Shown here piece after piece: positions 5,890-63,787 of a stretch of DNA of 64,000 bases (within the stretch, counting starts at the first letter, position 1; each line of letters starts with the position of its first letter). This DNA comes from Escherichia phage ukendt. The notes under the pieces are model-generated. The model had not been told where the DNA came from. It saw only the letters and a list, made by a program, of their open reading frames with translations, and did not search any database. The stretch lies in sequence record NC_052661.1, one strand, 5' to 3'. The position numbers were made by a program, and so were the translations under genes.

Positions 5890-7370
5890 CAATGTTGATA
5901 GCTTTCGCCTATGAAAAACCGACACAGAACAAAACTGAATAAATCACGGTATCAAGCTAATCGACCATTAAACGAATAACCATACATCCCAGGGCAACAG
6001 GCTGTTAGAGAGCTATTTAGAGCGGTTAAAATCGATCAACAACCAACAACAAACCATCAAAAACACCCTTTTACCTCCTTTCTAGTGCAATGATAACCAT
6101 TATCATCTACCCATGATTATCTATGCAATATAAGCGCATAATTATAATGTTGATAATAGTTCGCAACAACTAACCAACAAACAACATAAAACAATAAGCA
6201 AACTAATCATAATCAAAGGAATAATAGCAAGATGATTGATAACGACAAACAATCAAACCATGATGAATACTAAGCAAAACAACGATAACACGACAAAACA
6301 ACCAACTAACGAACAATAACAAACGAAACCATTAAAATAACAACTATTAGCAAAATAGTGCCTAAATGAAATCATTACAAAACGAATCATTCACAGGATC
6401 ATCATTAGCACGCTATGCCGGACACATAGCGAGCTAATAATAAGCCAACTACACCCCAACAATCATAACCATCGGTGACGGTTATTTCTTGTTACTGCGT
6501 AGCTTGCAATAATTGCAAGCGTAATGACGCTTACACTTATTGCGCTGGCTTATTATTAGCATTATATGTAATTACCAAGATCATAACATTAGCGCAATAA
6601 CAATAATCATTGTGGTAATTACAAGATGAAATCATTAGCAAGATGAATAATTGCACGTAGCAACATGAGCGAATAGCGACAGGTTGCATAGTGTGCACAT
6701 AGTGTATAAACATACAAGAAAATAAAGGCTAATCTTTTGGGGGCGAATACTATCGCGTAGCGATATGTTGAGCACCTTCTCTTAAACGTAAATAAAATCA
6801 GAAAATTCTTGATTTATTTTAGTTTTTATGTTAATAAACGTTTAAATAATAATCATTCTCATATAAATAATAGTCTGCTTGTCATGAGCGGGATTAGTTG
6901 ACAATGTTCCGTCATATGATGAAGTTGCCAAACCATTGATAAATAAGTGTTTGTGTGATTTATAATCAAGTGGCCCACCTTGTCGCTATGTTGGCATGAG
7001 CCTTGCATAAGTCATTGAATACGAATGATAATTATTCTCATTCGCATGATATTTGGGAATTGTCGCTGCGTGGACCTGACGGCCCGAAAATTCGCGTTAA
7101 GCACTTCTTACGTATGCGCCATGATTTTTGCCATATGATATTGATTCTATTAGATATTCTTGCCATGAAACAAGGTGTGTCGAAATAATCTCTCCCCGTA
7201 GATATTTTGGGTTACTTTTTATACAAGAGTGGGGTGTCAAAAATAATCGGTATATATGGGATAATTGATAGGAATCCCCTATGGTAATTCGATTGTAATT
7301 CCTTAAGATTGATCGTATGATGTTGGTGATTGATGATTGCCATGAAAGATGGCTAACGATGAGAGGAGAT
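5890..7370. other. 1.5-kb ORF-free region: A+C-skewed tract (about 5930-6430), 19-bp palindrome GCTTGCAATAATTGCAAGC (6503-6521), ATCATTAGCA-like direct repeats
   Basis: no ORF with RBS; strong strand compositional asymmetry; palindromes and repeats read directly. Confidence 0.5.
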
Positions 7371-31291: not shown

Positions 31292-32034
31292 TAATCCTCC
31301 TCAAGAGTTGAATAAAATTGAAGACCACCGTCCATATCGAAATAAGCAAATGTTAAGTTATTATTGAACACAGATCCAGTATCCATATAAACACGATTCG
31401 CATTGATAATAGGTGTTTTTACATAAGAGTGTCCATGGAACACATAGTCCACACCCATCACAACAGGAAGTTTCATTCCCTCTTTAGCACAGTCCACCAT
31501 ATCTCTGTCCCACATAAGTGCTTCAGCAAAACGGTTTTCCTGTGTTTTTGTCATCTTCAAAGTGTATTCTGGAATATCTGTTACAGGGAGATATTCCAAA
31601 GAAGATGGATACCCACCATGAATAAACGCAAGTTTCATGCCTCTGTAGTTAACAATGAGAACAACAGGTAAATCTTCTGTCATCATTGCTAAGGCTGTAG
31701 CTCCTTCTTCACCACATTCTTCAAGGACTGTATATCCTCCATTTTGATACCAACACTCGAAGTAGCTACGATCTCCTTCCAGCATACCTTTAATCATCAT
31801 GTCTTCATGATTTCCACGAATAGCGTAGCGATTGTGTTTACGAGTAAATTCTAAAACACAACGAAAGTTTTGCTTTCCACGGTCAGTAAGATCTCCTAAA
31901 GATACAACTACATCTGTATCTCGGATACCTAACTTTGCCTTTCCTTTTTCATACAAATTATAACAACCGTGTAGATCTCCAATTATAAAAAGATCTTGAT
32001 CGCTTTTAACAGTAATTTCTCTATGTATGATCAC
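31291..32034 (-). CDS. Ser/Thr protein phosphatase (calcineurin-like metallophosphatase)
   Basis: GDLHG, GDLTDRG, GNHE motifs. Confidence 0.8.
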   Translation of the reverse strand: MIIHREITVKSDQDLFIIGDLHGCYNLYEKGKAKLGIRDTDVVVSLGDLTDRGKQNFRCVLEFTRKHNRYAIRGNHEDMMIKGMLEGDRSYFECWYQNGGYTVLEECGEEGATALAMMTEDLPVVLIVNYRGMKLAFIHGGYPSSLEYLPVTDIPEYTLKMTKTQENRFAEALMWDRDMVDCAKEGMKLPVVMGVDYVFHGHSYVKTPIINANRVYMDTGSVFNNNLTFAYFDMDGGLQFYSTLEED

Positions 32035-51309: not shown

Positions 51310-52188
51310 TTATTTAAGGATTGTTGCTTTGGTTAAATCTTCCATCAGACCTCGAATCTCATTGAAGCACAGAAGGACTGAAGCTTCAATACTGCCTTCT
51401 TCGTCTGCAAAATATTTCGGAAAACGTAGTTTAGAAAGTTTAAACTCTTTATCCACTACAAAATCTACAACACCGTCATATTCAAGACCGATTGCAACAA
51501 CATCTTTACCATCTTCTTTTAGTTCGACAGCTTTAGACTCGTATAGGGATTCTTTACTCCAAACAACAACGCCCTCGCTATCCTCCATTTTGATATAATT
51601 TCCTAGAGTAATACGATCTGCTTCGTGATTCTCCAGCAATTCACCAAAACCTTTTACAATAGCTTCTTCGTGCACACTAAAACCTACCGAAGGGAAAGTC
51701 CCCAGAACGGAACGGAGGAAAGAAGTAATCTCTTCTGCAACCTTTTTACTTCCATTAAGAACATAAAGAAGATTCGTAGTTTTATCCAAGACAACATAGT
51801 TAAAGAAATCTTCAGGTTCTGTTTCAGGCAATAGTGCAAATTCAATATCTTCTTTCATTGCTTTGACTACTTCTTTATCGACATAAAACTCTTTACCCTC
51901 GCTCTCCATATCCTGACGCATTTCTTCTAGACGTTCATTCAGAATACGTTTAACTTTCTTTTTATCTACCTTCTTCACAGATTGACCTACATTAAGCAGT
52001 TCAAGATCTGAAAACTCTTTTACAAATTTGGAGTCATCTTCGAAACGAACAAGACCGATAGTGTGTGACTGGGAGCCTTCTGCTGTTACAAATTCCAGAG
52101 GAATATCTGTAATGTTGTTAAGGGATGCTACAGAAGCATTGTCACCAACAACCATAGGCAGAGCGGATTTAAAAGATTTTACAAACAT
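51310..52188 (-). CDS. hypothetical protein (292 aa), possibly RdgC-like
   Basis: ORF track; weak resemblance to RdgC from memory. Confidence 0.35.
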   Translation of the reverse strand: MFVKSFKSALPMVVGDNASVASLNNITDIPLEFVTAEGSQSHTIGLVRFEDDSKFVKEFSDLELLNVGQSVKKVDKKKVKRILNERLEEMRQDMESEGKEFYVDKEVVKAMKEDIEFALLPETEPEDFFNYVVLDKTTNLLYVLNGSKKVAEEITSFLRSVLGTFPSVGFSVHEEAIVKGFGELLENHEADRITLGNYIKMEDSEGVVVWSKESLYESKAVELKEDGKDVVAIGLEYDGVVDFVVDKEFKLSKLRFPKYFADEEGSIEASVLLCFNEIRGLMEDLTKATILK

Positions 52189-52244: not shown

Positions 52245-52970
52245 TTACTTGTTAATAATACCTGCAATATTAGGTTTGACAAAGGTCGATGGTTTCATGA
52301 TCTTACCTTTATCATCAAAGAACACATACACTTTCTGTTTTTCATTATAAACAGCATGAACACCAGTGTATGCCCCTTCTGGACGATTGGCATTTCGTTC
52401 TTCAATTGCAGCGCATTCTTGTGCAATGGCTGAATCGATATCCGAAGTTTTCCAAGTTTTCAGCAACTGTTGTTTAGTTGGATACTTGGAATCATTACTT
52501 TTCAATACCTCTTTAATAACTTTCTTTTCTGGATATTTTGAACGGATTAGAGTGTCACGAGACATACGCATAATACCAGCAGCCATTAGTGCCATTTGAA
52601 CTGGCTCTGTAAATGTTTGTTCCAAAGCATCAAAATCAGTATACACAGTTGGAGTAAAAACATCGCCTACAGCATAGTCCAAGAAATTCATCGTATGTTC
52701 TTCACCAAAGAACATGTAAGTCAGATAACTGGATACTACAAAAATATCTGCTGCTGCGTCCAAGAGTTCTACATGATCGTTTACTTTCGCGGCTGTTTCA
52801 TACTCTTTAAGTTCTTCACGAACGAATCCGATTTGGGACATAAATAGCTCTTGAGTGAATTCAGGTTGTTCACCACCTCGTGCTTTGGCATTCCAATCAA
52901 TCACGTGCTTTGCTGCATTTTTGAAAAATTCAGTATCGAATTTAATATCTTTAAAAAAATTCTCGATCAT
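52245..52970 (-). CDS. hypothetical protein (241 aa), possibly an all-alpha NTP pyrophosphohydrolase
   Basis: ORF track; EELKEYE...ELLDAAAD acidic helix pattern only. Confidence 0.3.
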   Translation of the reverse strand: MIENFFKDIKFDTEFFKNAAKHVIDWNAKARGGEQPEFTQELFMSQIGFVREELKEYETAAKVNDHVELLDAAADIFVVSSYLTYMFFGEEHTMNFLDYAVGDVFTPTVYTDFDALEQTFTEPVQMALMAAGIMRMSRDTLIRSKYPEKKVIKEVLKSNDSKYPTKQQLLKTWKTSDIDSAIAQECAAIEERNANRPEGAYTGVHAVYNEKQKVYVFFDDKGKIMKPSTFVKPNIAGIINK

Positions 52971-52979
52971 TATAACTCC

Positions 52980-53162
52980 TTATTTAAAATAGCTTTCTAG
53001 AAAGTTGCTAATATTTACTACAGTCTCACCCATGTAAATTCCTGCGAAACCGAAAACAAGCATACGTGGAATATTGAAATACCATTTATCCGCTGGAAAA
53101 GATGCCAGAATTACAATAGCAATTGCTATCAGCATCATAAGAATTGTTGCTAAAATTATCAT
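52980..53162 (-). CDS. hypothetical small membrane protein
   Basis: Start at internal Met after RBS ctggagg; hydrophobic. Confidence 0.4.
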   Translation of the reverse strand: MIILATILMMLIAIAIVILASFPADKWYFNIPRMLVFGFAGIYMGETVVNISNFLESYFK

Positions 53163-53353
53163 AAAAATGCCTCCAGGTATTTTGAACAATGATAAGCTAA
53201 GAAACAAGAAACTACCGCATACCCAACTCCAGACATACATGAATCAATCACAACACATACGGTTCTTTTCTTTGAATTCTTAGGAAAGTTTTCCGAAGCA
53301 TTCATACAATAAAAAGAAAGCACACTGAAAACAATTAAAATGGCTAAGAACAT
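53159..53353 (-). CDS. hypothetical small membrane protein (64 aa)
   Basis: ORF track. Confidence 0.4.
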   Translation of the reverse strand: MFLAILIVFSVLSFYCMNASENFPKNSKKRTVCVVIDSCMSGVGYAVVSCFLAYHCSKYLEAFL

Positions 53354-53362
53354 TTTTCCTCC

Positions 53363-54490
53363 TTACTCTGCTGGTTCCCAAGTGCCTGGGATCATTTCTC
53401 GAATACGAACACCAACAGGTTTTGTTGGAATACCTTCATCTGAAAATTCTTCATACTCTATTTCAACGAACTGATTAATCAAGGTAGAAGCATTCTCTGC
53501 TTTACGATAATTGATAGTCTCATGAGCATCTTTACGCATTAAGAATTCGACTACTTTACCATTTTCCATCTCACCTGTCAACACTCCATCACCATTTTTA
53601 TCACTTTTTGAATTTGTTACTTTAACTTCAAGGGTGTGGCGAGGCTTACGTTTAATAACGTCATAAGAACGTTTATCAAATTCGTAAACTCCGTTAGCAT
53701 TACGATATACTACACCTTCAGCTTTCTCAAGTAAAGCTTTTTCATAGAAAGCATCAAACTGTTCTTGGTTTTCAATATACTCTGTATGAACTACGCAAAT
53801 AAGCTCGTCAAGACCATAATCTTCAACTACTGCCTTAAGAGCAGCAAGAACATCAACACGTTTTTCAAACGGTAGATCTGGAACTGGAATATCATATACG
53901 TAATAATTCAGCAAAGGTGTATTTGCATTATGCTTCTTCCAGGCACTGTTAATTTGTTGCAGACTAAGGACACCTAACCCAGCAAACACTTCACCATCAA
54001 GAGGATGACCAACAACTTCACTAATAAAGTTTGGAATACCTTTCCAATGAGGTGGCAGGTTATACACTTCCCCAGCTTTTGATAAACACTCTCCTTTCAT
54101 GTTAATCATAGAACGTAACCCGTTCAGTTTGTATTGTGCATAACCAGGGAACACAACCCTTTCAGGATAATCTTTATAATCCTGGCATTTCATTGGTGTG
54201 GAAGGAACATGGTTTTCAGCTTCTTCTTTTGTTTTATAATAGCCATTCTTTAACTGTTTTGTCCATTTGGCAAAAGCTTCAAGTTCAGCTTGTTCTTCCG
54301 GTGTTGTTTCATTGGAACGACCAATGTTTTTTGCTTCTGCTGTATAAGATTTTTCTGTGATTTTTCCACCTACTCTTCCATGAGCTACAGTAACAACTGC
54401 ACCATCTGTATACACTGTCCACTGTTTAAGTTTTCCTTTTGAATCTTTACCATACAGCGTTTGATTTGTTTGTTGCATCAGTCCTCCCAT
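53363..54490 (-). CDS. ATP-dependent polynucleotide ligase (nucleotidyltransferase superfamily; DNA or RNA ligase)
   Basis: motif I KLNGLR, motif IV EGVVYR, motif V K-x-K. Confidence 0.55.
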   Translation of the reverse strand: MGGLMQQTNQTLYGKDSKGKLKQWTVYTDGAVVTVAHGRVGGKITEKSYTAEAKNIGRSNETTPEEQAELEAFAKWTKQLKNGYYKTKEEAENHVPSTPMKCQDYKDYPERVVFPGYAQYKLNGLRSMINMKGECLSKAGEVYNLPPHWKGIPNFISEVVGHPLDGEVFAGLGVLSLQQINSAWKKHNANTPLLNYYVYDIPVPDLPFEKRVDVLAALKAVVEDYGLDELICVVHTEYIENQEQFDAFYEKALLEKAEGVVYRNANGVYEFDKRSYDVIKRKPRHTLEVKVTNSKSDKNGDGVLTGEMENGKVVEFLMRKDAHETINYRKAENASTLINQFVEIEYEEFSDEGIPTKPVGVRIREMIPGTWEPAE

Positions 54491-54699
54491 TTAAAAACTG
54501 AAATTTTCAATCTATTACACACTTCATCCAAATCTGCGTCGAGTAACGTTGTAGATGTTGCCAATATGTAATCAATGCTTGTGAAACCTTGTCCTTTGGC
54601 ATAGTCAAGCATATCTTCATACATATCTTCAAGATCACCGTCATCAAAAGTAGCTAGAAAATCCTCGTCTCCGCTACGAACATAAAATGCAGTACTCAT
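54478..54699 (-). CDS. hypothetical acidic protein (73 aa)
   Basis: ORF track. Confidence 0.45.
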   Translation of the reverse strand: MSTAFYVRSGDEDFLATFDDGDLEDMYEDMLDYAKGQGFTSIDYILATSTTLLDADLDEVCNRLKISVFKWED

Positions 54700-54887
54700 T
54701 CTTCTTCATCCCAAGATTCAAAAGCACAACAATCATCGGTTTCTATAATACCAACACGTCCGCAGGTATTGCAAGTGATTTTATCCCCGTAGAATAAATA
54801 ATTTTTATCACCCTCTGTGTTTACAGTTATGTCATTACTACCACAAGGGCAAGTCAGCCAACCAACAACAACGATATCTTTTTTCAT
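54696..54887 (-). CDS. hypothetical zinc-ribbon protein (63 aa)
   Basis: ORF track; CPCG...CNTCG. Confidence 0.45.
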   Translation of the reverse strand: MKKDIVVVGWLTCPCGSNDITVNTEGDKNYLFYGDKITCNTCGRVGIIETDDCCAFESWDEEE

Positions 54888-54896
54888 AATCCCTCC

Positions 54897-55223
54897 TTAA
54901 GCGTTAAGTTCGTTGTTGAGTTCGTAAATCTCTTCTTGAAGAGCATCAATCTCTTCCTCCAAACGGGAGATCTCTTCTCTTAGATATACCATTTCGGATT
55001 CTTTCTCTTCTAATTCATTTTCAAATTTTACTTTATTAGCCTCATTTTCATAATGCAGTTCAGCGTAATCATCACGCATTTGTTCAATAAGATGAATCAG
55101 AGACAAGATATAATTGTCTCCCGTTTCATCACGCCACTCTTCACCGTGACGGAGAACGGTAATTCGTCCAGTATCTTCATCTAAAATTGTCTCATATTTA
55201 CGATCATCTGTATAAATCTGCAT
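54897..55223 (-). CDS. hypothetical coiled-coil protein (108 aa)
   Basis: ORF track. Confidence 0.45.
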   Translation of the reverse strand: MQIYTDDRKYETILDEDTGRITVLRHGEEWRDETGDNYILSLIHLIEQMRDDYAELHYENEANKVKFENELEEKESEMVYLREEISRLEEEIDALQEEIYELNNELNA

Positions 55224-55232
55224 TATTTCTCC

Positions 55233-55637
55233 TTATTGAAGTTTAAGTGAACCACGAAGACGTTTCTCTTGCTGATCACGGATATATTGTGGAACCTCGT
55301 GAATTGAATCATTACCGTGCCTATTTTCAACAACTAAAGAGATAACTTGATAACCAAACTCTTCAGCAAGAGCTAGATAAGGTTTAAGTTCTTTCTCTGT
55401 GGTTGAAGTATTAGAAACAATAATCTTGTTAAGATTAGATGCCATAGCATCACGAACAATACCCTGACACCATGCGTGTGCTTTACCTACATTTTCTGGC
55501 TTCCAATCGTAAACACCACTCTCTGTGTAATGATATTGATCTGCCTCACAGATAGGCCAATAACCTTCAGAAATAATTTCTGCTACTGTAGATTTACCAG
55601 CACCTGAAACGCCACGTAAAATGATAAGTTGTTTCAT
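55233..55637 (-). CDS. P-loop polynucleotide kinase-like protein (T4 Pnk kinase-domain-like)
   Basis: Walker A GVSGAGKST in a 134-aa protein immediately downstream of the RNA ligase. Confidence 0.55.
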   Translation of the reverse strand: MKQLIILRGVSGAGKSTVAEIISEGYWPICEADQYHYTESGVYDWKPENVGKAHAWCQGIVRDAMASNLNKIIVSNTSTTEKELKPYLALAEEFGYQVISLVVENRHGNDSIHEVPQYIRDQQEKRLRGSLKLQ

Positions 55638-56570
55638 TTATCCTCCAAAAAAGTTTTCGATTTTTTCACGTCGCTCTTGCTGATTTAAAGCAGCCCATTG
55701 AATCTTCGTAAAATTATTTCGAATCCATTCTAACAAAGCGTAATATTCTTCGTCAACCATTTGTTTGGCATTTTTTGGATTATCCCAAATCAGATCCCAC
55801 TTTTTATCTCCACCGCGCATAAGAAACTTCTTAGTAAGATAGTGTGGTGATTTAATTTTTAAAAGTAAGTTGAACGGATAGTTTGTTTCACGAACTACAA
55901 ACCCTTCGTGTTTACAATGTTTAGACATTTCAACAACATCTGAAAACTTAACCATTGGATGAACTTCAGGACGCTTAAATTTGGTGACAGAAGCAATTCC
56001 ATCAAGAGCACCTTCAGGTAACATAAAACTTGTCCCATCAGGATTTTGAATTCTGGCACCAATTAAGTATGCACCTGGTTCTTCTTCGACAATATGCGGA
56101 TCAGAAGGATCACAGATTTCAAAAAGGAAAGTTGCTTTTGCGCTCTCTGTCCATTTGATGAAATGTTCTATGTCATCACACTCTGAAACAATATGATTCT
56201 TTGCAATACTTGCAAAATCTGATTCAAGGCTTCCTGTTGTCGATACAATAAGTTGACCTTTATATACACCTACAGAGGCCATAAAACCATTTACTTTACG
56301 AACCACATCTACAAGTTCATCCGCTGGTAGATCTGTGCCATTCTCAAAACGATTAAAAATCTTAGTGAAAGGCCAAATAACAACATTGTCATCAGCATCA
56401 ACAACGATTCCGCGACATTCTAGAAGACGAGAATCAATGCTCCATAAGTTATCCCAGAAAACTTTGTTCTTATACTTAAGAACAGATAGACCAGAATACT
56501 CTCCTTCTTTATATGTTTTCTTATGAACTAAACCTTTTTCAACCAAATCGTCGCAATTAAATTTAGTCAC
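55638..56570 (-). CDS. RNA ligase (T4 Rnl1-like)
   Basis: LECRGIVVD...FNRFEN and motif I KVNGFM resemble T4 RnlA as recalled; EGFVVR and LKIK motifs. Confidence 0.7.
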   Translation of the reverse strand: MTKFNCDDLVEKGLVHKKTYKEGEYSGLSVLKYKNKVFWDNLWSIDSRLLECRGIVVDADDNVVIWPFTKIFNRFENGTDLPADELVDVVRKVNGFMASVGVYKGQLIVSTTGSLESDFASIAKNHIVSECDDIEHFIKWTESAKATFLFEICDPSDPHIVEEEPGAYLIGARIQNPDGTSFMLPEGALDGIASVTKFKRPEVHPMVKFSDVVEMSKHCKHEGFVVRETNYPFNLLLKIKSPHYLTKKFLMRGGDKKWDLIWDNPKNAKQMVDEEYYALLEWIRNNFTKIQWAALNQQERREKIENFFGG

Positions 56571-56571
56571 A

Positions 56572-57123
56572 TTACTCTCCTTTGATTATTTTGTGATGGT
56601 CTACAGTCACGATATCTCGTTTACTCATCATAGAAATTATCTCATCAAAATGCAAGATTTTTCCGTGTGCATCCCAACCCACATCTAACATTTTACCATA
56701 AGCTTCATCAGGGAAAGATCCGTGGGAATGCCCATGTAGCATGATTGATCCACGACCTTGTTTATTCCAGGAGGCAATAGGGTAATGACTTAAGACGAAG
56801 AACAGCTTCTGGTATTTCACTTCGTCATAATACACCACTTCGCCATACTCTGCAAGCACTTCTCGGTGTTTGCTGTAGTCATGGTTCCCAACACAGTAGG
56901 TGATATCTCCTTGGAGACGGGAAGCAATTTTACGGGTATCTTCTTCAGTTCCGAAACAGAAGTCGCCCAAATGCCACATCTTAACACCAGGAGTAGTAGC
57001 ACATTTGTTCCATGCTTCGATCAAGGCTTCTGTCATGTGGTCCATATCTTCCCACGGACGATATTCAGGAGCAAACTCTCGAATACGTTTATGCATAAAA
57101 TGCAAATCGCTTGTAATAAACAT
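56572..57123 (-). CDS. calcineurin-like metallophosphoesterase
   Basis: DLHF, GDFCFG, GNHD, GHSH metal-binding motifs. Confidence 0.7.
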   Translation of the reverse strand: MFITSDLHFMHKRIREFAPEYRPWEDMDHMTEALIEAWNKCATTPGVKMWHLGDFCFGTEEDTRKIASRLQGDITYCVGNHDYSKHREVLAEYGEVVYYDEVKYQKLFFVLSHYPIASWNKQGRGSIMLHGHSHGSFPDEAYGKMLDVGWDAHGKILHFDEIISMMSKRDIVTVDHHKIIKGE

Positions 57124-57479
57124 TAGTATAATCCCTCGCTAAATAATTCATGATCGTGACCATTACGCTCATGGTCGATCTGGTCAGCATTTTCCGCGAT
57201 GATGTAAGCATCCGCACGACTCCACCAATTGTAATACTGATCGATAAAGCCTTGATTATCTGGTGTGCACAAAGTTTTGTTGATTACACCTGCTTCTTTC
57301 AACACGTTTAACTGTGCATATAGTACAGGATTTGCATGTCGAACACAAGGAATAATTAACTCTTCACCATTATTCAAAATATACTTATTTGCAGCACAGA
57401 CGATAACACGTTGCGCATAATGACCCTCACCCATCCAGGTAAGAGGTTGGTAACAAATATTGTTTTCAATACCACTCAT
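57123..57479 (-). CDS. hypothetical protein (118 aa)
   Basis: ORF track. Confidence 0.5.
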   Translation of the reverse strand: MSGIENNICYQPLTWMGEGHYAQRVIVCAANKYILNNGEELIIPCVRHANPVLYAQLNVLKEAGVINKTLCTPDNQGFIDQYYNWWSRADAYIIAENADQIDHERNGHDHELFSEGLY

Positions 57480-57638
57480 TGTTTCCTAATCCTCCTCTCT
57501 TAAGTTATCCTCGAAAAAACTAGTGTCTGGAAGTAAAAGATCATTACTTGTGTCGGGCCAATCCTCTTCTTCTCGGTAGATAAAGTAACCTTCGTCCTCT
57601 TCTTGTTCCGACCAAACCGAATGATGCATGTTCTCTCC

Positions 57639-57995
57639 TTAATAGTGCACACGAATCATTTTAATACCATAACGCAGCATGGATTCTTTTGCAAGCATGA
57701 ATTTATCCCCAGCGGCGGGATTAGAAGTATGCACGAAAATGGTAGGTGAACCAAAGCAAGGTTTACCAAACGCCAAAAGTTCTTCCAGGCGCAGGAAAAC
57801 ATCATACCCATCTTGGTCAGAATCTTCACCCAAATCGTTGTCAAAATGCCACTCGTCTACAAAACGATAACCCTTCTGCACCTCGTTCATGTAGCGAGAG
57901 GCAAGAAGTTCCTGTGATGTTTTAAACCAGATTGCATCTGGACAACCATAATCTTTTGGATCACGTAAATCATCAAGCCAAATAATAGTACCCAT
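57639..57995 (-). CDS. hypothetical protein (118 aa)
   Basis: ORF track. Confidence 0.5.
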   Translation of the reverse strand: MGTIIWLDDLRDPKDYGCPDAIWFKTSQELLASRYMNEVQKGYRFVDEWHFDNDLGEDSDQDGYDVFLRLEELLAFGKPCFGSPTIFVHTSNPAAGDKFMLAKESMLRYGIKMIRVHY

Positions 57996-58005
57996 ATAAC
58001 CTCCT

Positions 58006-58476
58006 CTAAGCTGGCATGATTAAAAAAGAACTCTCCACTTCAAAATGCCAATCATCTACAAGCCCTGATTCCCAATCCTTCTCTTCATGGAAAGAGCAAA
58101 TCCAACGGTACATACCTGGCGGTGTATTCTCAACATCTTCTGGCAACCCATAATCCAAAGCTGTCTTACCGTTCTCGGTAAAACCAGGATGGAGATTAGG
58201 AGCTTTCAGTACAGAAACCATACCTCCAACATCTACAGCCACGATCCACTCTGTCATGTATGGGCTGTCATATTGAGGCTCATCAGAACCTACCTCAACA
58301 GCCTCTGTGCGTAAGATGATAATAGCCTGCTCTGTGATTGGGGCTTTGACAATATACCCGTGATCCTCAAAAAGATCGATAACCTCGAACTCATCGCCGT
58401 TTTCGATACCATAGCTCTTATTCAAAGAGATAAACTTCGGGTTATCATCGTAAGCTTTAGTTACTTTAATTTTCAT
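58006..58476 (-). CDS. hypothetical protein (156 aa)
   Basis: ORF track. Confidence 0.5.
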   Translation of the reverse strand: MKIKVTKAYDDNPKFISLNKSYGIENGDEFEVIDLFEDHGYIVKAPITEQAIIILRTEAVEVGSDEPQYDSPYMTEWIVAVDVGGMVSVLKAPNLHPGFTENGKTALDYGLPEDVENTPPGMYRWICSFHEEKDWESGLVDDWHFEVESSFLIMPA

Positions 58477-58697
58477 TTTTCCTCCTTCACTTTAACCTCA
58501 AATTCTACAGGCTTACCCTCAATGTAAAAACACTGATACTCTGCCTTATCATCCTCATCACGAGGCCAAGTTACCAAGGAGTTATAGCAATCTTCTGGTG
58601 CTTTGAAGATGGTTTTAGTCTCCACAGTAACATTCCCATTAAGTGTTGCCAATACCACCCACCCAGCTACAGGGATCATAGTGCCTCCACTTTCCAC
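58473..58697 (-). CDS. hypothetical protein (74 aa)
   Basis: ORF track. Confidence 0.45.
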   Translation of the reverse strand: MESGGTMIPVAGWVVLATLNGNVTVETKTIFKAPEDCYNSLVTWPRDEDDKAEYQCFYIEGKPVEFEVKVKEEK

Positions 58698-58858
58698 GTT
58701 TTACCCTTATCAACCAAGGTCTTTGCTACAGCATACTCCTTCCCATTAACAATGAAATAATAAACTATAAAAGATTTTCCGATTGTTACTGTCTTAGTAA
58801 CCTCTACGCGTTTAACACCTTGCATGTATTTCGCCTTACCGGAATAAAGTAAAATCAT
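58676..58858 (-). CDS. hypothetical protein (60 aa)
   Basis: ORF track. Confidence 0.4.
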   Translation of the reverse strand: MILLYSGKAKYMQGVKRVEVTKTVTIGKSFIVYYFIVNGKEYAVAKTLVDKGKTWKVEAL

Positions 58859-59136
58859 TTTGCATTCCTCTTATTATTGATAACATCCATAGCAGTATAT
58901 GGTTTATTAGTGCCATGATACTCCAGAATCATTGGAGAGCCTTCTTGCACTACTTCAAAAATACCATAAACAGAACTTTCAGCAAATACCATTTGCTTCG
59001 TGCCTTCATCGTTTACAACGAGAGAAAACTTCTTGCCTGTCCCGTTGAGGATCTCGTATTTCTTGCCAGCAGTGAATAATCCAGAGTACCACTCGTTATC
59101 TGTTGCTTTTACACACTTCAGGAAAGTCTTGATCAT
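58855..59136 (-). CDS. hypothetical protein (93 aa)
   Basis: ORF track. Confidence 0.45.
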   Translation of the reverse strand: MIKTFLKCVKATDNEWYSGLFTAGKKYEILNGTGKKFSLVVNDEGTKQMVFAESSVYGIFEVVQEGSPMILEYHGTNKPYTAMDVINNKRNAK

Positions 59137-59486
59137 TTCTTTTTGCTCCTCTTTTTAGATTTCTCATACAAACCTAACACAGCCGCCTCTTTTGCACAAG
59201 TAGGAACTGAAGTCATTCCTCTTCGTTTTGCTTCTGGTAGTTGCAAAGTCCATATTCCCCACCAATAAATTTGGTCTGCCGTGAGTGGTTCAGCCATTGG
59301 ATCTGCCTCCTGCTCCTCAAGACGTTGCAACGCTTCTTCAATCTTCTCGATTGGTGTGTCAAAGACGAATGCCTCCGTATCAAATTTATCTTTCTTAGGA
59401 ACTGATTTGGCTACTTTGAGAACCTCGTTTTTCGGTTTCTTAGTAACGTTCTTTGGCTTTGATAACTTCTTCGGTGTTTTCGCCAC
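59133..59486 (-). CDS. hypothetical Lys-rich basic protein (117 aa)
   Basis: ORF track; basic N- and C-termini. Confidence 0.45.
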   Translation of the reverse strand: MAKTPKKLSKPKNVTKKPKNEVLKVAKSVPKKDKFDTEAFVFDTPIEKIEEALQRLEEQEADPMAEPLTADQIYWWGIWTLQLPEAKRRGMTSVPTCAKEAAVLGLYEKSKKRSKKK

Positions 59487-59679
59487 TTACTACCTCCATA
59501 CGATCTAAAAAGTCATTCACAAATCTCCAGTAACGTTGACCTGTTCTAAGATCTTCATAGATAACCACAGGATCAAACACTTTAGATATTCCGGCAGGTT
59601 TTGGAAATTCCACTACCGTATATAAACCACCTTTTGCTACACAAGAATAGGTTACGCCTGTAATTGGATAGTTGCTCAT
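59440..59679 (-). CDS. hypothetical protein (79 aa)
   Basis: ORF track. Confidence 0.45.
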   Translation of the reverse strand: MSNYPITGVTYSCVAKGGLYTVVEFPKPAGISKVFDPVVIYEDLRTGQRYWRFVNDFLDRMEVVSGENTEEVIKAKERY

Positions 59680-59870
59680 TTCTTTACGTACTCCATGATT
59701 GGGGTATGGTCGCCAGTAAGTGTAACACGGCTGTAGGACACATCTTGTGTCTTCAGTGTATCAATCCACTCTAAGAAGTGTTCTTTCGCTTCTGTGTAGT
59801 TCTGTGTGCCTTTAACAACGTGTATACCATCTAGAGTTACACGGAATACCATTTGAATAACGTCTTTCAT
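59676..59870 (-). CDS. hypothetical protein (64 aa)
   Basis: ORF track. Confidence 0.45.
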   Translation of the reverse strand: MKDVIQMVFRVTLDGIHVVKGTQNYTEAKEHFLEWIDTLKTQDVSYSRVTLTGDHTPIMEYVKK

Positions 59871-59983
59871 TTCTTACCTCCTTTGTTGTCAAAATAACTT
59901 ACCAGAACATCGTGAACCACACACATGGCAAAAATCAGAACAATTGTTGTCAGGACTGGATTCTCACTAATTAGTGCTATCAT
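59867..59983 (-). CDS. hypothetical small membrane peptide
   Basis: Internal Met start chosen to limit overlap with upstream gene. Confidence 0.3.
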   Translation of the reverse strand: MIALISENPVLTTIVLIFAMCVVHDVLVSYFDNKGGKK

Positions 59984-60290
59984 CTTTAACCACCTCCAAT
60001 TGCCTTTCGAGTTTGACTTTGTTTGAGAACTGATAATGACACAACTTACATTGCATGTCAACAATCTGATCGTGATTTAACCCTACAATTTTAACTTCCT
60101 TTGCACCATCCCATTCCAAATACTCAAAGCCATCCAAATGATTACTCTTGTCCAACAGGAATGCTATCTGCTGCCATTCAATCTGAATATCATTTAAATG
60201 ATATGCTGCACAGAAGATATCCTCATAGTAAAAGACGACCATTGTCATTGCTTCGTCCAGTACAACTACCTCTTGTCTTGTAAATCTCAT
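59967..60290 (-). CDS. hypothetical protein (107 aa), first gene of minus-strand block
   Basis: ORF track. Confidence 0.5.
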   Translation of the reverse strand: MRFTRQEVVVLDEAMTMVVFYYEDIFCAAYHLNDIQIEWQQIAFLLDKSNHLDGFEYLEWDGAKEVKIVGLNHDQIVDMQCKLCHYQFSNKVKLERQLEVVKDDSTN

Positions 60291-60299
60291 TCTAGCCTC

Positions 60300-60770
60300 C
60301 TAAACGCGTCTCTGACGCACTTTTTATATATAAGATGATAAATCACCTTACCTAGTAAGTAAACTTGCTCTACGAGCCTCTTATGAAGCTTATGTTATAG
60401 GCTATACTATTGCTACCTGTTTAAGCAAGGTTTTTGCACACAGAAAATAATTTTTAATAAAACTCTTGACTTTTGTGTTCGAAGTATGCTACCCTAGAAA
60501 TCTATTAACGAGCGAAGCGAGTTAAGGTTTTAGGTTGTTGATGTAGTACTCTGTACTCAAGTACTGTACTCCGTACTAGATTAATAATTATTAAATATTA
60601 ATAATAAATAATTATTAGATCTAACAAACAGGTACAGTGTATCAGAACTGGTACGTACAGATCAACTTCTATCAATTAAAAAATAAAATAATAAATTATT
60701 ATAAATAATACTTGATCTATAGATCAGTATGAAGTATAGTACGGAACATCTTAACAAGAATGGAGGTGTG
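60300..60770. other. divergent intergenic control region with GTACT repeat cluster (60544-60577) and AT-only palindromes (60581-60618)
   Basis: no ORFs; GTACT occurs 5 times in 34 bp; TTAATAATTATTAA is a perfect palindrome. Confidence 0.5.
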
Positions 60771-60772
60771 CA

Positions 60773-60958
60773 ATGATTAGTGAGAATCCGTGCAAATGGC
60801 ATCATGTGCCTATTAAAGATTGTATGTCTTGTAATCCACGTTCTATTTATAACATTGCATCTTATGATGATGACAATGTGTTAGACGATGATGAAGGCTG
60901 GGAGGATTTAGATTGGACTGGTTATGAAACCAAAAAGGATAAAATTATTCCTAGTTGA
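60773..60958 (+). CDS. hypothetical protein (61 aa)
   Basis: ORF track; RBS gaatggaggtgtgca. Confidence 0.5.
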   Translation: MISENPCKWHHVPIKDCMSCNPRSIYNIASYDDDNVLDDDEGWEDLDWTGYETKKDKIIPS

Positions 60959-60995
60959 CTTAAGATATCCTTCGTGCTAAACTAGAAATGAGGAG

Positions 60996-61247
60996 ATGCC
61001 GATCACTCCCCATTTGGGGTTCGAAGGATATATGCAAAATAGCTTTTATTTTAGGTGCCGTGCTTGTAATAGGCATTTGACAAACCACTCCAGACGTGAT
61101 AAAAATGGAGTCATCAAGGAATCAGACCTCTGTTCTATTTGCACAGGTTTGGCTTTTGATGATAGTCCCGAAAGGGTTTATCAGCATCAATGTATAACAG
61201 ACGTTCTCGTGTCAAACTTGGTAGAGGACGAACAACTAACAGATTAG
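60996..61247 (+). CDS. hypothetical zinc-finger protein (83 aa)
   Basis: ORF track; CRACNRH...CSIC. Confidence 0.5.
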   Translation: MPITPHLGFEGYMQNSFYFRCRACNRHLTNHSRRDKNGVIKESDLCSICTGLAFDDSPERVYQHQCITDVLVSNLVEDEQLTD

Positions 61248-61255
61248 GAGGAACA

Positions 61256-61504
61256 ATGTCTCTATTAGAAAAACACGTGTTTGAAGATGGTAACGGCAAT
61301 GCAGTTTTTCTTTTCCATCCAGAAAAATACACATCTGAAAACAATGGTACAACTTCTATTGTAATCACTAAAGATGTTAAAGTTATTGATTTCTTGGCTC
61401 TGATGCGAGAGATGGATCTTGAAATTAATACTTTTAACGCAGAAGCTTTGGTTGTTGCTCTTCTGGAAAAGAAAGATAGTGAAGAAGTAGCAGAATATGC
61501 TTAA
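61256..61504 (+). CDS. hypothetical protein (82 aa)
   Basis: In-frame ATG after RBS attaggaggaaca. Confidence 0.5.
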   Translation: MSLLEKHVFEDGNGNAVFLFHPEKYTSENNGTTSIVITKDVKVIDFLALMREMDLEINTFNAEALVVALLEKKDSEEVAEYA

Positions 61505-61512
61505 ATAACTAT

Positions 61513-61542
61513 TGACAAACGTATCCTTCATATGTTAGGATA
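61513..61542 (+). promoter_or_regulatory. promoter TTGACA with TG-n-TAGGAT, upstream of tRNA cluster
   Basis: -35 61513-61518; same TATGTTA(R)GAT architecture as 62100 and 63828. Confidence 0.5.
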
Positions 61543-61751
61543 CGTTCATCAAGTGTGGTAACAGGGTCGTTGACTTTTGTTAAGAGAGGCTTGCACTGCG
61601 GATAGTGTTAGAGACTACTTCTTCAGAGGTTAGCTACCAAAGAGGAAAAGGAATAGTCTCGGCTCAAGAACTTTTACGCTGAAAGTTGGGCTTGGTCTTA
61701 GAGAATGTAGCGGTTCTCTACAATCGTCAGCGTCTCTGTTACCACATTTAT

Positions 61752-61823
61752 GGCCCTGTAGCTCAATGGGAGAGCTGTCGGCTCATAACCGATAGGTAGC
61801 TGGATCGAAACCAGCCAGGGCCA
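61752..61823 (+). tRNA. tRNA, anticodon CAT (elongator Met or lysidine-modified Ile2)
   Basis: cloverleaf folded by eye; anticodon loop CUCAUAA; T-arm GCTGG-ATCGAAA-CCAGC; CCA encoded. Confidence 0.75.
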
Positions 61824-61828
61824 CCAAC

Positions 61829-61900
61829 GTCTTTATGGTGTAATGGATAGCACAGGAGTCTTCTAAACTCTTAGTCAAGGTTCGATTCCTTGTAAAGACA
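61829..61900 (+). tRNA. tRNA-Arg (anticodon TCT)
   Basis: acceptor GTCTTTA/TAAAGAC; loop CTTCTAA; T-loop TTCGATT. Confidence 0.75.
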
Positions 61901-62099
61901 CCAGAACATTTTAACATGAATTAGCTCAAGTGATTTGAACCCACTACTGATCATGGTGGCAGAGAATGAGGTAAGTATGTCAGACATTATAAACAAAGGC
62001 CACGGTTATATTAGAAGACATAAATGCTCGAAGAGCACCGTTCGCTGAGAACGGGGGTTGGTGGAGTCACCATTCATGGTAAAATGTTTTAAAAAACTA

Positions 62100-62128
62100 T
62101 TGACAACTAACACTATTTTATGTTAGAT
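62100..62128 (+). promoter_or_regulatory. promoter TTGACA-N17-TTAGAT inside tRNA cluster
   Basis: hexamers 62100-62105 and 62123-62128, immediately before tRNA-Ser. Confidence 0.5.
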
Positions 62129-62137
62129 TATAAGCAT

Positions 62138-62225
62138 GGAAGGGCAAATCGACGTGGCGACGAAAACGGTCTTGAAAACCGCCGAGCTTGAAAGAGCCTT
62201 GGGAGTTCGACTCTCCCTCCTTCCG
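62138..62225 (+). tRNA. tRNA-Ser (anticodon TGA), class II
   Basis: acceptor GGAAGGG, loop CUUGAAA, long variable arm, discriminator G, CCA encoded; D-arm irregular. Confidence 0.7.
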
Positions 62226-62232
62226 CCAGATT

Positions 62233-62315
62233 GGTAGATTGGTGAAATGGTAGCCACGACAGTTTGCTAAACTGTAGTCGGAAACGGCGTGTAGGTTCGA
62301 GTCCTACATCTACCG
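62233..62315 (+). tRNA. tRNA-Ser (anticodon GCT), class II
   Basis: stem ACAGT/ACTGT, loop TTGCTAA, long variable arm, discriminator G. Confidence 0.75.
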
Positions 62316-62448
62316 CCAAGTTCTTTTTAATGTAGCTTACTTTAGCAGAGTAAATCTTCGGCAAGTGGCGGTAACCACTTTACCGATACCTCATAGTTAG
62401 TGGTGTGAACACTGGCTATTTTAAAAAGAATTTAAATATTAGTATTTA

Positions 62449-62533
62449 GGTGAGTTAATTCCGTAGGGGTAGCGGGGCAGACTGTAAATCTGTTATCATT
62501 GCGATTCGGGTGGTTCGACTCCATCACTCACCA
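62449..62533 (+). tRNA. tRNA-Tyr (anticodon GTA), class II
   Basis: loop CTGTAAA, long variable arm, discriminator A; 5-nt spacer between acceptor and D-stem is atypical. Confidence 0.65.
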
Positions 62534-62542
62534 CCAAATTAA

Positions 62543-62625
62543 GATGAGTTGGCTGAATGGTTTAAGCGGCGGACTGTTAATCCGTGTTCGAAAGAACAAT
62601 ATAGGTTCGAATCCTATACTCATCG
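62543..62625 (+). tRNA. atypical tRNA: Ser-type class II body with anticodon GTT (Asn codons)
   Basis: acceptor GATGAGT/ACTCATC, 3-bp D-stem, stem GCGGA/TCCGT, loop CTGTTAA, 15-nt variable arm, discriminator G. Confidence 0.6.
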
Positions 62626-62635
62626 CCAGAATTAT

Positions 62636-62711
62636 GGACTTGTAGAGTTAAGGTAAACCCCCAGTCGCCAATAGGCTTCTGGAATTGCAGGTATCGAATC
62701 CTGCCGAGTCC
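62636..62711 (+). tRNA. tRNA-like element (acceptor and T-arm pair, anticodon arm not foldable); possible pseudo-tRNA
   Basis: GGACTTG/CGAGTCC acceptor pairing and GCAGG..CCTGC T-stem with 8-nt loop; no canonical anticodon stem found. Confidence 0.25.
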
Positions 62712-62718
62712 CAGCATT

Positions 62719-62790
62719 GCTCCTATAGTATAATGGCTATTACAACGGTTTTGTAATCCGTGGATCTCTGTTCGATTCAGTGTGGGAGCA
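62719..62790 (+). tRNA. tRNA-Thr (anticodon TGT)
   Basis: acceptor GCTCCTA/TGGGAGC, loop TTTGTAA, T-loop TTCGATT; a few stem mismatches. Confidence 0.65.
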
Positions 62791-63065
62791 CCAACACAAC
62801 ATTAAGAGCACTGTGATTGATCGTCGTATCCTGTGCACAAGGTCTGCTCGAAAGACAGTGTTCTTAGTATTGTGTTGATCACAAAAAGAGTCACCCGAAA
62901 CTTGACCGGAGTAGGGTTGGATGGGGCAAAATGAGAAGCGGCTCTCCCATCGACAGCAACGAAGAATAATATTTGACTTTGGTTTTGTATTATTTAAGTT
63001 AGCTTACCGAACGTAGGGCTAGTCACCCAACGGGATACTCGTCACTGTCCCAATCAATAAAAGTC

Positions 63066-63095
63066 TTGACAACAAATAGTAAAATGTAGTATAGT
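63066..63095 (+). promoter_or_regulatory. promoter TTGACA-N18-TATAGT before tRNA-Gly
   Basis: hexamers 63066-63071 and 63090-63095. Confidence 0.5.
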
Positions 63096-63106
63096 AAAGA
63101 TATAGG

Positions 63107-63177
63107 GCGTTCTTGGTGTAGCGGTAGCATTCCGTCCTTCCAAGTCGGCGGCACGAGTTCGATCCTCGTAGAACGCT
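63107..63177 (+). tRNA. tRNA-Gly (anticodon TCC)
   Basis: acceptor GCGTTCT/AGAACGC, loop CTTCCAA, T-arm ACGAG-TTCGATC-CTCGT, discriminator T; D-arm weak. Confidence 0.6.
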
Positions 63178-63277
63178 CCAAATTATTTAATAAAGGGTTG
63201 CCAGAAAACTTTCTCTTTTACTCATGGTTTTCTCCTTCTCTCACACTTCTTCTGGTTGCCCTTCATTAAATGATTTT

Positions 63278-63350
63278 TGGTTTGTAGTGTAGTCCGGTAG
63301 CACACGACACTTTGACTGTCGTAGGTTTGGTTCAAATCCAGACAGACCAG
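63278..63350 (+). tRNA. tRNA-Gln (anticodon TTG)
   Basis: U1-A72 start, stem CGACA/TGTCG, loop CTTTGAC, discriminator G, CCA encoded. Confidence 0.75.
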
Positions 63351-63358
63351 CCATATAA

Positions 63359-63432
63359 CGGAATTTAGCTCAGTTTGGTAGAGTGTACGCTTTGGGAGCG
63401 TATTGTCGCAGGTTCGAATCCTGCAATTCCGA
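63359..63432 (+). tRNA. tRNA-Pro (anticodon TGG)
   Basis: acceptor CGGAATT/AATTCCG, stem TACGC/GCGTA, loop TTTGGGA, T-arm GCAGG-TTCGAAT-CCTGC. Confidence 0.8.
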
Positions 63433-63441
63433 CCAATTAAA

Positions 63442-63512
63442 TGTTTCGTAGTTCAATGGTAGAACCCACGACTGATAATCGTGAGACACAAGTTCGATTC
63501 TTGTCGAAACAA
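63442..63512 (+). tRNA. tRNA-Ile (anticodon GAT)
   Basis: acceptor TGTTTCG/CGAAACA, D-stem GTTC/GAAC, stem CACGA/TCGTG, loop CTGATAA. Confidence 0.75.
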
Positions 63513-63517
63513 CCAGT

Positions 63518-63587
63518 TTCCCGTTAGACTTACAGGATAAGAGTTCCACAGCTTATTGTGATGCTGGTTCGAATCCAGCACGGGATA
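63518..63587 (+). tRNA. tRNA-like element with canonical T-arm but non-canonical anticodon arm; possible pseudo-tRNA
   Basis: T-arm GCTGG-TTCGAAT-CCAGC and acceptor pairing present; only a 5-bp stem with 4-nt loop (CACAG-CTTA-TTGTG) found. Confidence 0.3.
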
Positions 63588-63593
63588 CATAAT

Positions 63594-63669
63594 AGCGGGA
63601 TAGAGGAGTCTGGTCGTCCTCGCCAGTTTCATATGCTGGAGATCATTGGTTCAAATCCGATTCCCGCCT
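63594..63669 (+). tRNA. tRNA, anticodon CAT, initiator-like (1:72 mismatch, T-loop TTCAAAT)
   Basis: acceptor AGCGGGA/TCCCGCC with A1-C72 mismatch, D-stem GAGG/CCTC, stem CCAGT/GCTGG, loop TTCATAT. Confidence 0.6.
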
Positions 63670-63787
63670 CCAAATATCGCTTGCCAGCGGTATCTTTGAA
63701 GACCTTGCCTGGTTCCTTCTAAGATGGAGGGGTGCGACTCCTTAACGCACAATTATAATAAAGCATTTCAAATTAACAGTATTTATT

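Follow-up and report, generated by a model that had tools for sequence, protein, structure and literature searches.

Do three abutting genes of Escherichia phage ukendt encode the enzymes that heal and seal broken RNA? The genes lie on the minus strand of a 64,000-nucleotide stretch of the record NC_052661.1, referred to here as the window, and are predicted to encode a stand-alone metallophosphoesterase (56572..57123), an Rnl1-family ATP-dependent RNA ligase (55638..56570) and a minimal polynucleotide 5'-kinase-like protein (55233..55637). A preliminary description made from the sequence alone proposed that they are a split RNA repair module. Our analysis favors this reading with a probability of roughly 0.7: the three genes would be a split heal-and-seal RNA repair unit in a long leftward Phapecoctavirus operon. 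The reading is carried by the catalytic motifs of the ligase, the predicted structure of the kinase, and the co-occurrence and fusion of these families in distant phages and bacteria.

The four open reading frames (ORFs) picked out in that description, the trio and a second ligase gene, were confirmed on the minus strand with exact coordinates, and GenBank relatives give the same boundaries. The stop codon of the gene upstream, termed P839, overlaps the phosphoesterase start in the sequence TAATG at 57123. One nucleotide separates the phosphoesterase stop from the GTG start of the ligase (56570), and the ligase stop (55638) is followed without a gap by the ATG of the kinase (55637). A GGAG-type Shine-Dalgarno sequence is located upstream of each start, inside the preceding gene. 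Translational coupling of the trio is visible in this packing of the DNA. Scans of positions 52900-61800 were no better than chance for consensus promoters (32 versus 28.1 ± 4.4 in shuffled sequences) and for terminators (8 versus 4.8 ± 2.5), and the claim is therefore limited to co-orientation and coupling in a long leftward gene block.

Over 4.6 kb, the locus shares 99.2% identity with Escherichia phage Mt1B1_P17. The same region has matches in 125 phage records, most of which belong to Phapecoctavirus and Justusliebigvirus (subfamily Stephanstirmvirinae). The matching phages are E. coli myoviruses of ~150 kb of the phAPEC8/phi92 type. Three GenBank records (MG065650.1, MG065644.1 and MG065666.1) are named "Campylobacter phage" with C. 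jejuni as host, yet match E. coli phage groups, and these host labels look doubtful. One of them, B15 (MG065650.1), has ~99% DNA identity to the Phapecoctavirus of the window, and A147/A12a (MG065644.1, MG065666.1) give a ligase match like that of Vequintavirus-type coliphages, at ~48% protein identity. The trio is already named in several GenBank records, for example Schickermooser; other records label its genes "ATPase", "hypothetical protein" or "RNA ligase and tail fiber protein attachment catalyst". NCBIfam gave zero equivalog-level matches among the six proteins of the locus.

Enzyme families of the three proteins

The 310-residue ligase matches PF09511 (RNA_lig_T4_1) over the entire model (1-227/227; residues 51-244) with an E-value of 3.8e-15 and 56.8 bits (cut-off 28.3), and it matches phrog_562 at 2.3e-70. 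A single-sequence phmmer search of the PDB returned no match. A family profile built from four homologs of 41-49% identity, from Vequintavirus, Pakpunavirus and Vibrio Thalassavirus, matched T4 Rnl1 structures only (2c5u, 9do4 and 5tt6; best 8.3e-13). The full-length PF09511 match and T4 Rnl1 as the only solved relative bear out the Rnl1-like ligase of the preliminary description, which had made its case depend on a covalent lysine. Profile alignment to 2c5u places the predicted covalent lysine K92 (codon 56295-56297) on T4 K99. The same alignment pairs R53, K70 and F72 with the Rnl1-specific residues R54, K75 and F77, G95 with G102, E151 with E159, E222-G223 with E227-G228, and K238 and K240 with K240 and K242, so that motifs III, IV and V are aligned. 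K92, E151, E222-G223, K238/K240, R53 and K70/F72 are invariant in the four distant homologs. The list of essential T4 Rnl1 residues reportedly derives from Shuman-lab mutagenesis. The alignment stops at residue 250 of the 374-residue T4 enzyme, and the ligase scores 24.1 bits against the T4 RnlA equivalog TIGR02308 of NCBIfam (cut-off 242), short of the ortholog level.

The 134-residue kinase matches AAA_33 (2.7e-10), phrog_2071 (2e-56) and the PHROG "polynucleotide kinase" profile (7.9e-8). By themselves, the sequence profiles give a soft assignment. A single-sequence phmmer search of the PDB found marginal P-loop matches only, and the top matches of the family profile were Pnkp1, the Mucorales Trl1 kinase, CthPnk and T4 Pnk with E-values of 3e-4 to 2e-2. 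Structure comparison ranked the Clostridium thermocellum Pnkp kinase domain (15.7) and T4 Pnk (15.6 and 15.5) highest, followed by PSTK (13.5) and Pnkp1 (13.1). The preliminary description had named a nucleotide or nucleoside monophosphate kinase as the identity that would overturn its assignment; the adenylate, uridylate and thymidylate kinases score 7.6-9.0. Judged from these models, the fold is nearer to polynucleotide kinases than to nucleoside or nucleoside monophosphate kinases, in agreement with the stand-alone protein resembling the T4 Pnk kinase domain first described. The P-loop is G9-x-x-G12-x-G14-K15-S16 (K15 codon 55593-55595). The putative general base, D33, occupies the position of T4 D35 (Cth D38) and aligns with the first Asp of the Pnkp1 NRDDF motif. 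Across 20 homologs, G12, G14, K15 and D33 do not vary. The protein consists of the kinase domain only and has no T4-type HAD (DxDxT) 3'-phosphatase domain. All 120 homologs listed are stand-alone proteins of 82-145 residues, mostly 131-145.

The 183-residue phosphoesterase is a binuclear metallophosphoesterase of the aq_1665/COG4186/phrog_547 family (phrog_547, 8.8e-56). Its family profile found Aquifex aeolicus aq_1665 (1xm7) in the PDB at 5.5e-17 and no other convincing match. The DxH, GD, GNH[D/E], H, GH and GHxH metal motifs and the beta-sandwich fold are kept, and all ligands of the dinuclear metal site are invariant in 25 homologs. Structure prediction gave a confident model. Its comparison scores were 18.5 for 1xm7, 11.7 for LpxH, 11.4 for YfcE, 11.0 for MJ0936, 9.6 for lambda-phosphatase and 8.1 for the CthPnkp phosphatase domain (rank 39). 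Because 1xm7 is far ahead, the likeness to bacterial Pnkp holds at the superfamily level only. Thus, the separate metallophosphoesterase of the preliminary description stands, and its closer kinship to bacterial Pnkp, of the lambda-phosphatase/Pnkp clade, does not. aq_1665 is a structural-genomics protein of uncharacterised function, and a search of the literature for aq_1665, 1XM7 or COG4186 biochemistry returned nothing relevant; no function can be transferred from aq_1665 because no biochemical paper on it was found. A PdeM identity was discarded at 16.5 bits against the NCBIfam cut-off of 150 and was not used as evidence. The protein is proposed as the enzyme that would heal 2',3'-cyclic-phosphate or 3'-phosphate ends.

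Linkage of the three genes in phages and bacteria

Gene linkage was measured in 78 viral loci anchored on ligase relatives of 30-87% identity, in which ORFs were scanned with family hidden Markov models (HMMs) and partners were counted within 6 kb. The kinase is present in 70/78 loci, on the same strand in 69/70 and within 150 bp in 50. The phosphoesterase is present in 67/78, on the same strand in 66/67 and within 1 kb in 61. All three genes occur in 62/78. There is a minimum of four gene orders; with the kinase, ligase and phosphoesterase genes abbreviated KIN, RNL and MPE, these are KIN-RNL-MPE (25 loci), MPE-RNL-KIN (21), RNL-KIN-MPE (8) and RNL-MPE-KIN (5). These results strongly link the three genes in function, which is the strongest result of the analysis.

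The association extends to bacterial chromosomes. A bacterial sample of 65 ligase loci came from Campylobacter species and Moraxella osloensis. A kinase domain was detected with the ligase in 62/65, typically in one ORF of ~500 residues, and the same phosphoesterase family directly follows the kinase-ligase ORF in 61/65. In the fused ORF of Moraxella osloensis (CP083409; locus L171:5344-7614), AAA_33 covers residues 20-130 and RNA_lig_T4_1 covers residues 244-447, and corresponding chromosomal cassettes are found in Campylobacter spp. (L172-L227). The cassette is flanked by housekeeping genes, not prophage genes. This two-gene cassette has the appearance of an RNA repair system of the cell itself, different from Pnkp-Hen1 and RtcAB.

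When 1.84 billion representative proteins were searched exhaustively, 2128 ligase relatives were recovered, 324 of them at E <= 1e-30 and most of ~300 residues. Metagenomic relatives include kinase-phosphoesterase-ligase fusions of 700-812 residues as well as kinase-ligase, ligase-kinase and phosphoesterase-ligase fusions. The phosphoesterase domain of these fusions is of the PF00149/lambda-phosphatase type and is not matched by the aq_1665 HMM; therefore, one ligase family pairs with two phosphoesterase clades. This pairing is expected if an aq_1665-type enzyme non-orthologously replaces a Pnkp-type 2',3'-phosphoesterase.

Proposed repair pathway and its alternatives

From these families we infer the enzymatic activities, an RNA and specifically a tRNA substrate, the order of steps and a role in counter-defence. 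In the proposed pathway, the kinase would phosphorylate the 5'-OH, the aq_1665-type metallophosphoesterase would strip the cyclic phosphate or 3'-phosphate to leave a 3'-OH, and the Rnl1-type ligase, adenylylated on K92, would transfer adenosine monophosphate to the 5'-phosphate and seal the nick. The likely role would be the rescue of tRNAs, or of other RNAs used in translation, after cleavage by abortive-infection or toxin RNases of the host.

A fourth protein may take part. The preliminary description, sound for the trio, overlooked an upstream gene in the same operon that encodes a 118-residue cyclic-phosphate-processing receiver (cREC) domain protein (57639..57995, minus strand; PF20274, 3.4e-13, 50.5 bits, cut-off 27). 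A cREC homolog directly follows the RNA ligase in Vequintavirus, with a Sir2 gene immediately after the ligase-cREC pair. cREC lies between ligase and kinase in loci L008 and L009 and adjoins the ligase in L008, L009 and L012, and its linkage to the ligase is observed in two phage subfamilies. It was detected in 5/78 viral and 0/65 bacterial ligase loci and is, because of this distribution, considered a lineage-specific addition, probably a fourth component. Iyer et al. 2021 (PMC7824862) define cREC, predict that it processes cyclic phosphates and note operonic links to RNA ligases. In lineages that have it, cREC would possibly open the cyclic phosphate first.

The counter-defence role is plausible by analogy to T4, whose Pnkp and Rnl1 counter the PrrC anticodon nuclease (PMC7824862, PMC12445682, PMC4933390). 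The kind of nuclease that would select for the window proteins is narrowed by other E. coli defences. Toprim-type (OLD-type) tRNA-targeting systems leave ligatable 5'-P/3'-OH ends that need no healing, and P2 Old excises the anticodon arm and so defeats repair (PMC12445682). Effectors that produce cyclic phosphates are suggested as the selective pressure because Toprim ends are ligatable and P2 Old beats repair, yet the module has end-healing enzymes.

Several observations weigh against the proposed pathway, the ready-to-ligate Toprim ends among them. The position of T4 K119 is T112 in the ligase, a family-invariant Thr, and is thus not conserved. Most of the T4 Rnl1 C-terminal domain is absent, so tRNA specificity is not to be assumed. 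The position of T4 R38 in the kinase family is His or variable. The ligase-kinase pair can also be missing: the close, Phapecoctavirus-like relative L231 (a 153-kb contig) retains cREC, P839, phosphoesterase and DNA ligase, and has a 112-residue ORF with an HExxH motif (L231:5914-6252) in place of ligase and kinase. The segment with ligase and kinase is found in 111 GenBank phage records versus 120 for the segment with phosphoesterase and P839, leaving ~9/120 relatives without the pair. No paper testing the trio by biochemistry or genetics was found in the literature searched. The remaining points concern the phosphoesterase, which structural modeling places outside the clade for which 2',3'-cyclic phosphodiesterase activity is proven. 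Among the best 80 phosphoesterase-anchored loci, the ligase is present in 30/80 and the kinase in 22, and the phosphoesterase family is considered broader than the module because of the ligase count. cREC is a competing candidate for the 3'-end healing step, and a lambda-phosphatase/NinI-type metallophosphoesterase encoded elsewhere in the window (31294-32034, minus strand; "NinI-like serine-threonine phosphatase" in a RefSeq relative) may be an alternative 3'-end healer by analogy to lambda-phosphatase, which has documented 2',3'-cyclic phosphodiesterase activity (PMC2190708).

The alternative that survives best starts from these points. Ligase and kinase would be an RNA repair pair, 3' ends would be healed by cREC and/or the 31294-32034 enzyme, and the aq_1665-type protein would have its substrate elsewhere, for example among nucleotide second messengers or DNA ends. 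Its retention in L231 and the ~9/120 relatives, the predominance of family members without a ligase, the lambda-phosphatase-like character of the domains fused to ligase relatives, the activity documented for lambda-phosphatase itself, and the nucleases and phosphodiesterases among its structural neighbors behind 1xm7 all fit this view. We nevertheless regard it as unlikely. The aq_1665-type gene stands beside the ligase on the same strand in the 67/78 viral and 61/65 bacterial loci, is the sole other gene of the bacterial cassette and is separated from the ligase by 1 nucleotide in the window, and cREC is undetectable in most ligase loci.

It is quite improbable that the trio matures or remodels phage or host RNAs, by tRNA precursor processing or by RNA circularisation or recycling in host RNA turnover, and has no part in counter-defence. 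A cluster of 10-11 tRNA genes is nearby, and the chromosomal version amid housekeeping genes suggests general RNA maintenance. Pseudomonas phage PAK_P3 causes massive RNA turnover and induction of the host rtcAB operon (PMC4933390); its group is among the ligase tblastn matches. Counter-defence is favored by the dispensability of the ligase-kinase pair, which is swapped out in some close relatives as is typical of accessory counter-defence genes, and by T4, the only experimentally understood precedent. The gene surroundings in other lineages, where NAD-salvage-like and Macro genes often adjoin the trio, argue in the same direction. In Pakpunavirus and Thalassavirus the trio is beside phosphoribosyl pyrophosphate (PRPP)-synthetase-like and nicotinate/nicotinamide phosphoribosyltransferase-like genes, as in Pseudomonas phage K5 (L004:4846-7672) and Vibrio phage Gary (L005:6570-7442). 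Recurrent neighbors in the 78 ligase-anchored loci are PRPP-synthetase-like (20), phosphoribosyltransferase-like (27) and Macro-domain (22) genes, counts that within-lineage synteny may inflate. These genes presumably resemble a recently described phage pathway for reconstituting nicotinamide adenine dinucleotide (NAD+), and such neighbors possibly mark an NAD+-reconstitution counter-defence neighborhood.

It is very improbable that the kinase and the phosphoesterase serve the nearby DNA ligase by healing DNA ends in the manner of PNKP, the Rnl1-like protein being incidental. T4 Pnk acts on DNA too, which counts for this idea, and the DNA ligase is 1 kb off with exonuclease and RdgC-like genes close by. 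Of the 78 loci, however, only 22 have the DNA ligase within 6 kb of the RNA ligase, versus 67-70 for the RNA ligase partners, every fusion joins kinase and phosphoesterase to the RNA ligase, and the PdeM match of the phosphoesterase is far under its cut-off. A tail-fibre attachment catalyst, backed only by the inherited PHROG/GenBank label that derives from T4 gp63, is strongly disfavored by the setting of the ligase gene amid replication and nucleotide-metabolism genes, not tail genes, by its conserved kinase and phosphoesterase partners, and by kinase-fused homologs on bacterial chromosomes outside prophages.

With an RNA repair unit as the preferred reading, a wider proposal can be made tentatively, as a possibility that we hold to be less probable than its negation. 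The aq_1665-type phosphoesterase, minimal Pnk-like kinase and short Rnl1-like ligase would be a distinct and very widespread RNA repair pathway common to phages of many unrelated groups (E. coli, Pseudomonas, Vibrio, Klebsiella, Acinetobacter) and to the Campylobacter/Moraxella fusion cassette. Joined by cREC in enterobacterial myoviruses, it would be a system of four parts that overcomes several immune effectors that cut RNA, beyond PrrC-type anticodon nucleases.

Gene surroundings and known repair systems

The gene between phosphoesterase and cREC, P839 (57123..57479, minus strand), encodes a 118-residue PF26092/phrog_839 protein (phrog_839, 4.1e-47; PF26092 in homologs) with conserved, enzyme-like motifs VCAAN, RH, QGFID and ELFSExLY. 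No solved relative was found by sequence. Members of the family are spread widely among large phages, T4-like ones with genomes of ~170 kb included, and the homolog P0204 is a tandem duplication. P839 was ruled out as a module component because ligase and kinase occur in only 2/80 P839-anchored loci, and solved structures give no support to the "anti-restriction nuclease" label that some records inherit from ACLAME. A small, very acidic ORF of 47 residues (57486..57629, minus strand) lies between cREC and P839 in the same leftward gene block and is a 144-nucleotide coding sequence in relatives.

Downstream of the trio, the second KxNGxR ligase of the preliminary description, ~1 kb away, has the motif (KLNGLR, residues 121-126; K121 numbered from the ATG at 54490) and does not belong to the RNA module. 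It is a phage ATP-dependent DNA ligase (53363..54490, minus strand; PF01068, 1e-9, 38.8 bits, cut-off 26.2; phrog_114, 1.3e-74; PRK09125, 1.5e-15), the start of which relatives annotate at 54478. Just downstream is a MazG-like nucleotide pyrophosphohydrolase (52245-52970, minus strand; PF01503, phrog_671), a family also found after the Sir2 gene in Vequintavirus. An ORF at 51310-52188 (minus strand) is annotated in relatives as an RdgC-like or recombination-associated exonuclease. Annotation of Mt1B1_P17 (L230) over the part that corresponds to the window's first half lists Sir2-family, PhoH-like and 190-residue "histidyl tRNA synthetase" fragment-like proteins (L230:14238-15053, 6663-7235).

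The large tRNA cluster noted at the outset is present on the opposite strand (61752..63672, plus), 3.8 kb beyond the cREC gene, with 10 tRNAs by ARAGORN and 11 by Rfam. The eleventh (62449-62533, plus) is a weak, Rfam-only match of 39 bits that RefSeq relatives annotate as a pseudo-tRNA with a GTA anticodon. tRNA-Lys is absent from the cluster, which includes tRNA-Thr(UGU), the tRNA that P2 Old preferentially targets (PMC12445682).

RNA cleavage is a very common output of bacterial immunity, through anticodon nucleases, HEPN effectors, Cas13, type III CRISPR and toxin RNases, and among phage RNA repair systems genetic proof exists only for T4 Pnkp with Rnl1. The trio is present in hundreds of sequenced phages, including Vequintavirus and phi92-like members of the BASEL collection that infect K-12, and could show which defences are neutralised by repair and which by phage-encoded replacement tRNAs. 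If the proposed pathway is true, it would give the orphan aq_1665 metallophosphoesterase family its first function, bear on the predicted cREC activity and possibly provide compact end-healing and sealing enzymes, each a stand-alone protein, for work with RNA. Should it prove to be no more than a T4-like pathway in which parts are exchanged, the advance would be incremental.

The general system is known already from T4 Pnkp and Rnl1, bacterial Pnkp-Hen1 and comparative-genomic surveys. No experimental characterisation of the split combination of minimal kinase, short Rnl1-type ligase, aq_1665-type phosphoesterase and optional cREC was found in the literature searched, which did not cover the Burroughs and Aravind 2016 survey that may already catalogue the combination. 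RNA ligase and polynucleotide kinase are not mentioned in the rV5 and BASEL papers, and nothing relevant was found for rV5, phAPEC8 or phi92. The available text of PMC7824862 describes Rnl1/Rnl2 ligases, polynucleotide kinases, phosphoesterases and cREC as counter-measures to tRNA cleavage, and mentions occasional calcineurin-like phosphatases besides operonic cREC-ligase links. As far as that text extends, it surveys jumbo phages without experiments, whereas the window belongs to a 150-kb Phapecoctavirus lineage; this lineage, the aq_1665 family, the bacterial kinase-ligase cassette and co-occurrence statistics do not appear in it.

The T4 system shares with the trio the PF09511 ligase family with aligned catalytic lysine and motifs, and the same three chemical steps are required. 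T4 Pnkp and Rnl1 are encoded by pseT and gene 63, which are not contiguous, whereas the window genes are. In contrast to T4, the kinase of the window is a stand-alone protein without a fused HAD 3'-phosphatase, the phosphatase role would fall to an unrelated metallophosphoesterase, and the ligase, 64 residues shorter, is without most of the C-terminal domain and reaches 24 bits where the T4 RnlA equivalog cut-off is 242.

The C. thermocellum Pnkp-Hen1 and Pnkp1-Rnl-Hen1 systems resemble the trio in combining a kinase, a binuclear metallophosphoesterase and an ATP-dependent ligase. A Hen1-like methyltransferase domain was absent from the ten ORFs scanned at 52245-57995; elsewhere, where annotation only was consulted, the methyltransferase labels are for DNA methyltransferases. 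Bacterial Pnkp is a single polypeptide, unlike the three separate proteins of the window, and the window ligase is of the Rnl1 type, with a family profile that does not match Pnkp or Pnkp1-system ligase structures. The relatives of this ligase that are fused as kinase-phosphoesterase-ligase nevertheless have the same domain order as bacterial Pnkp.

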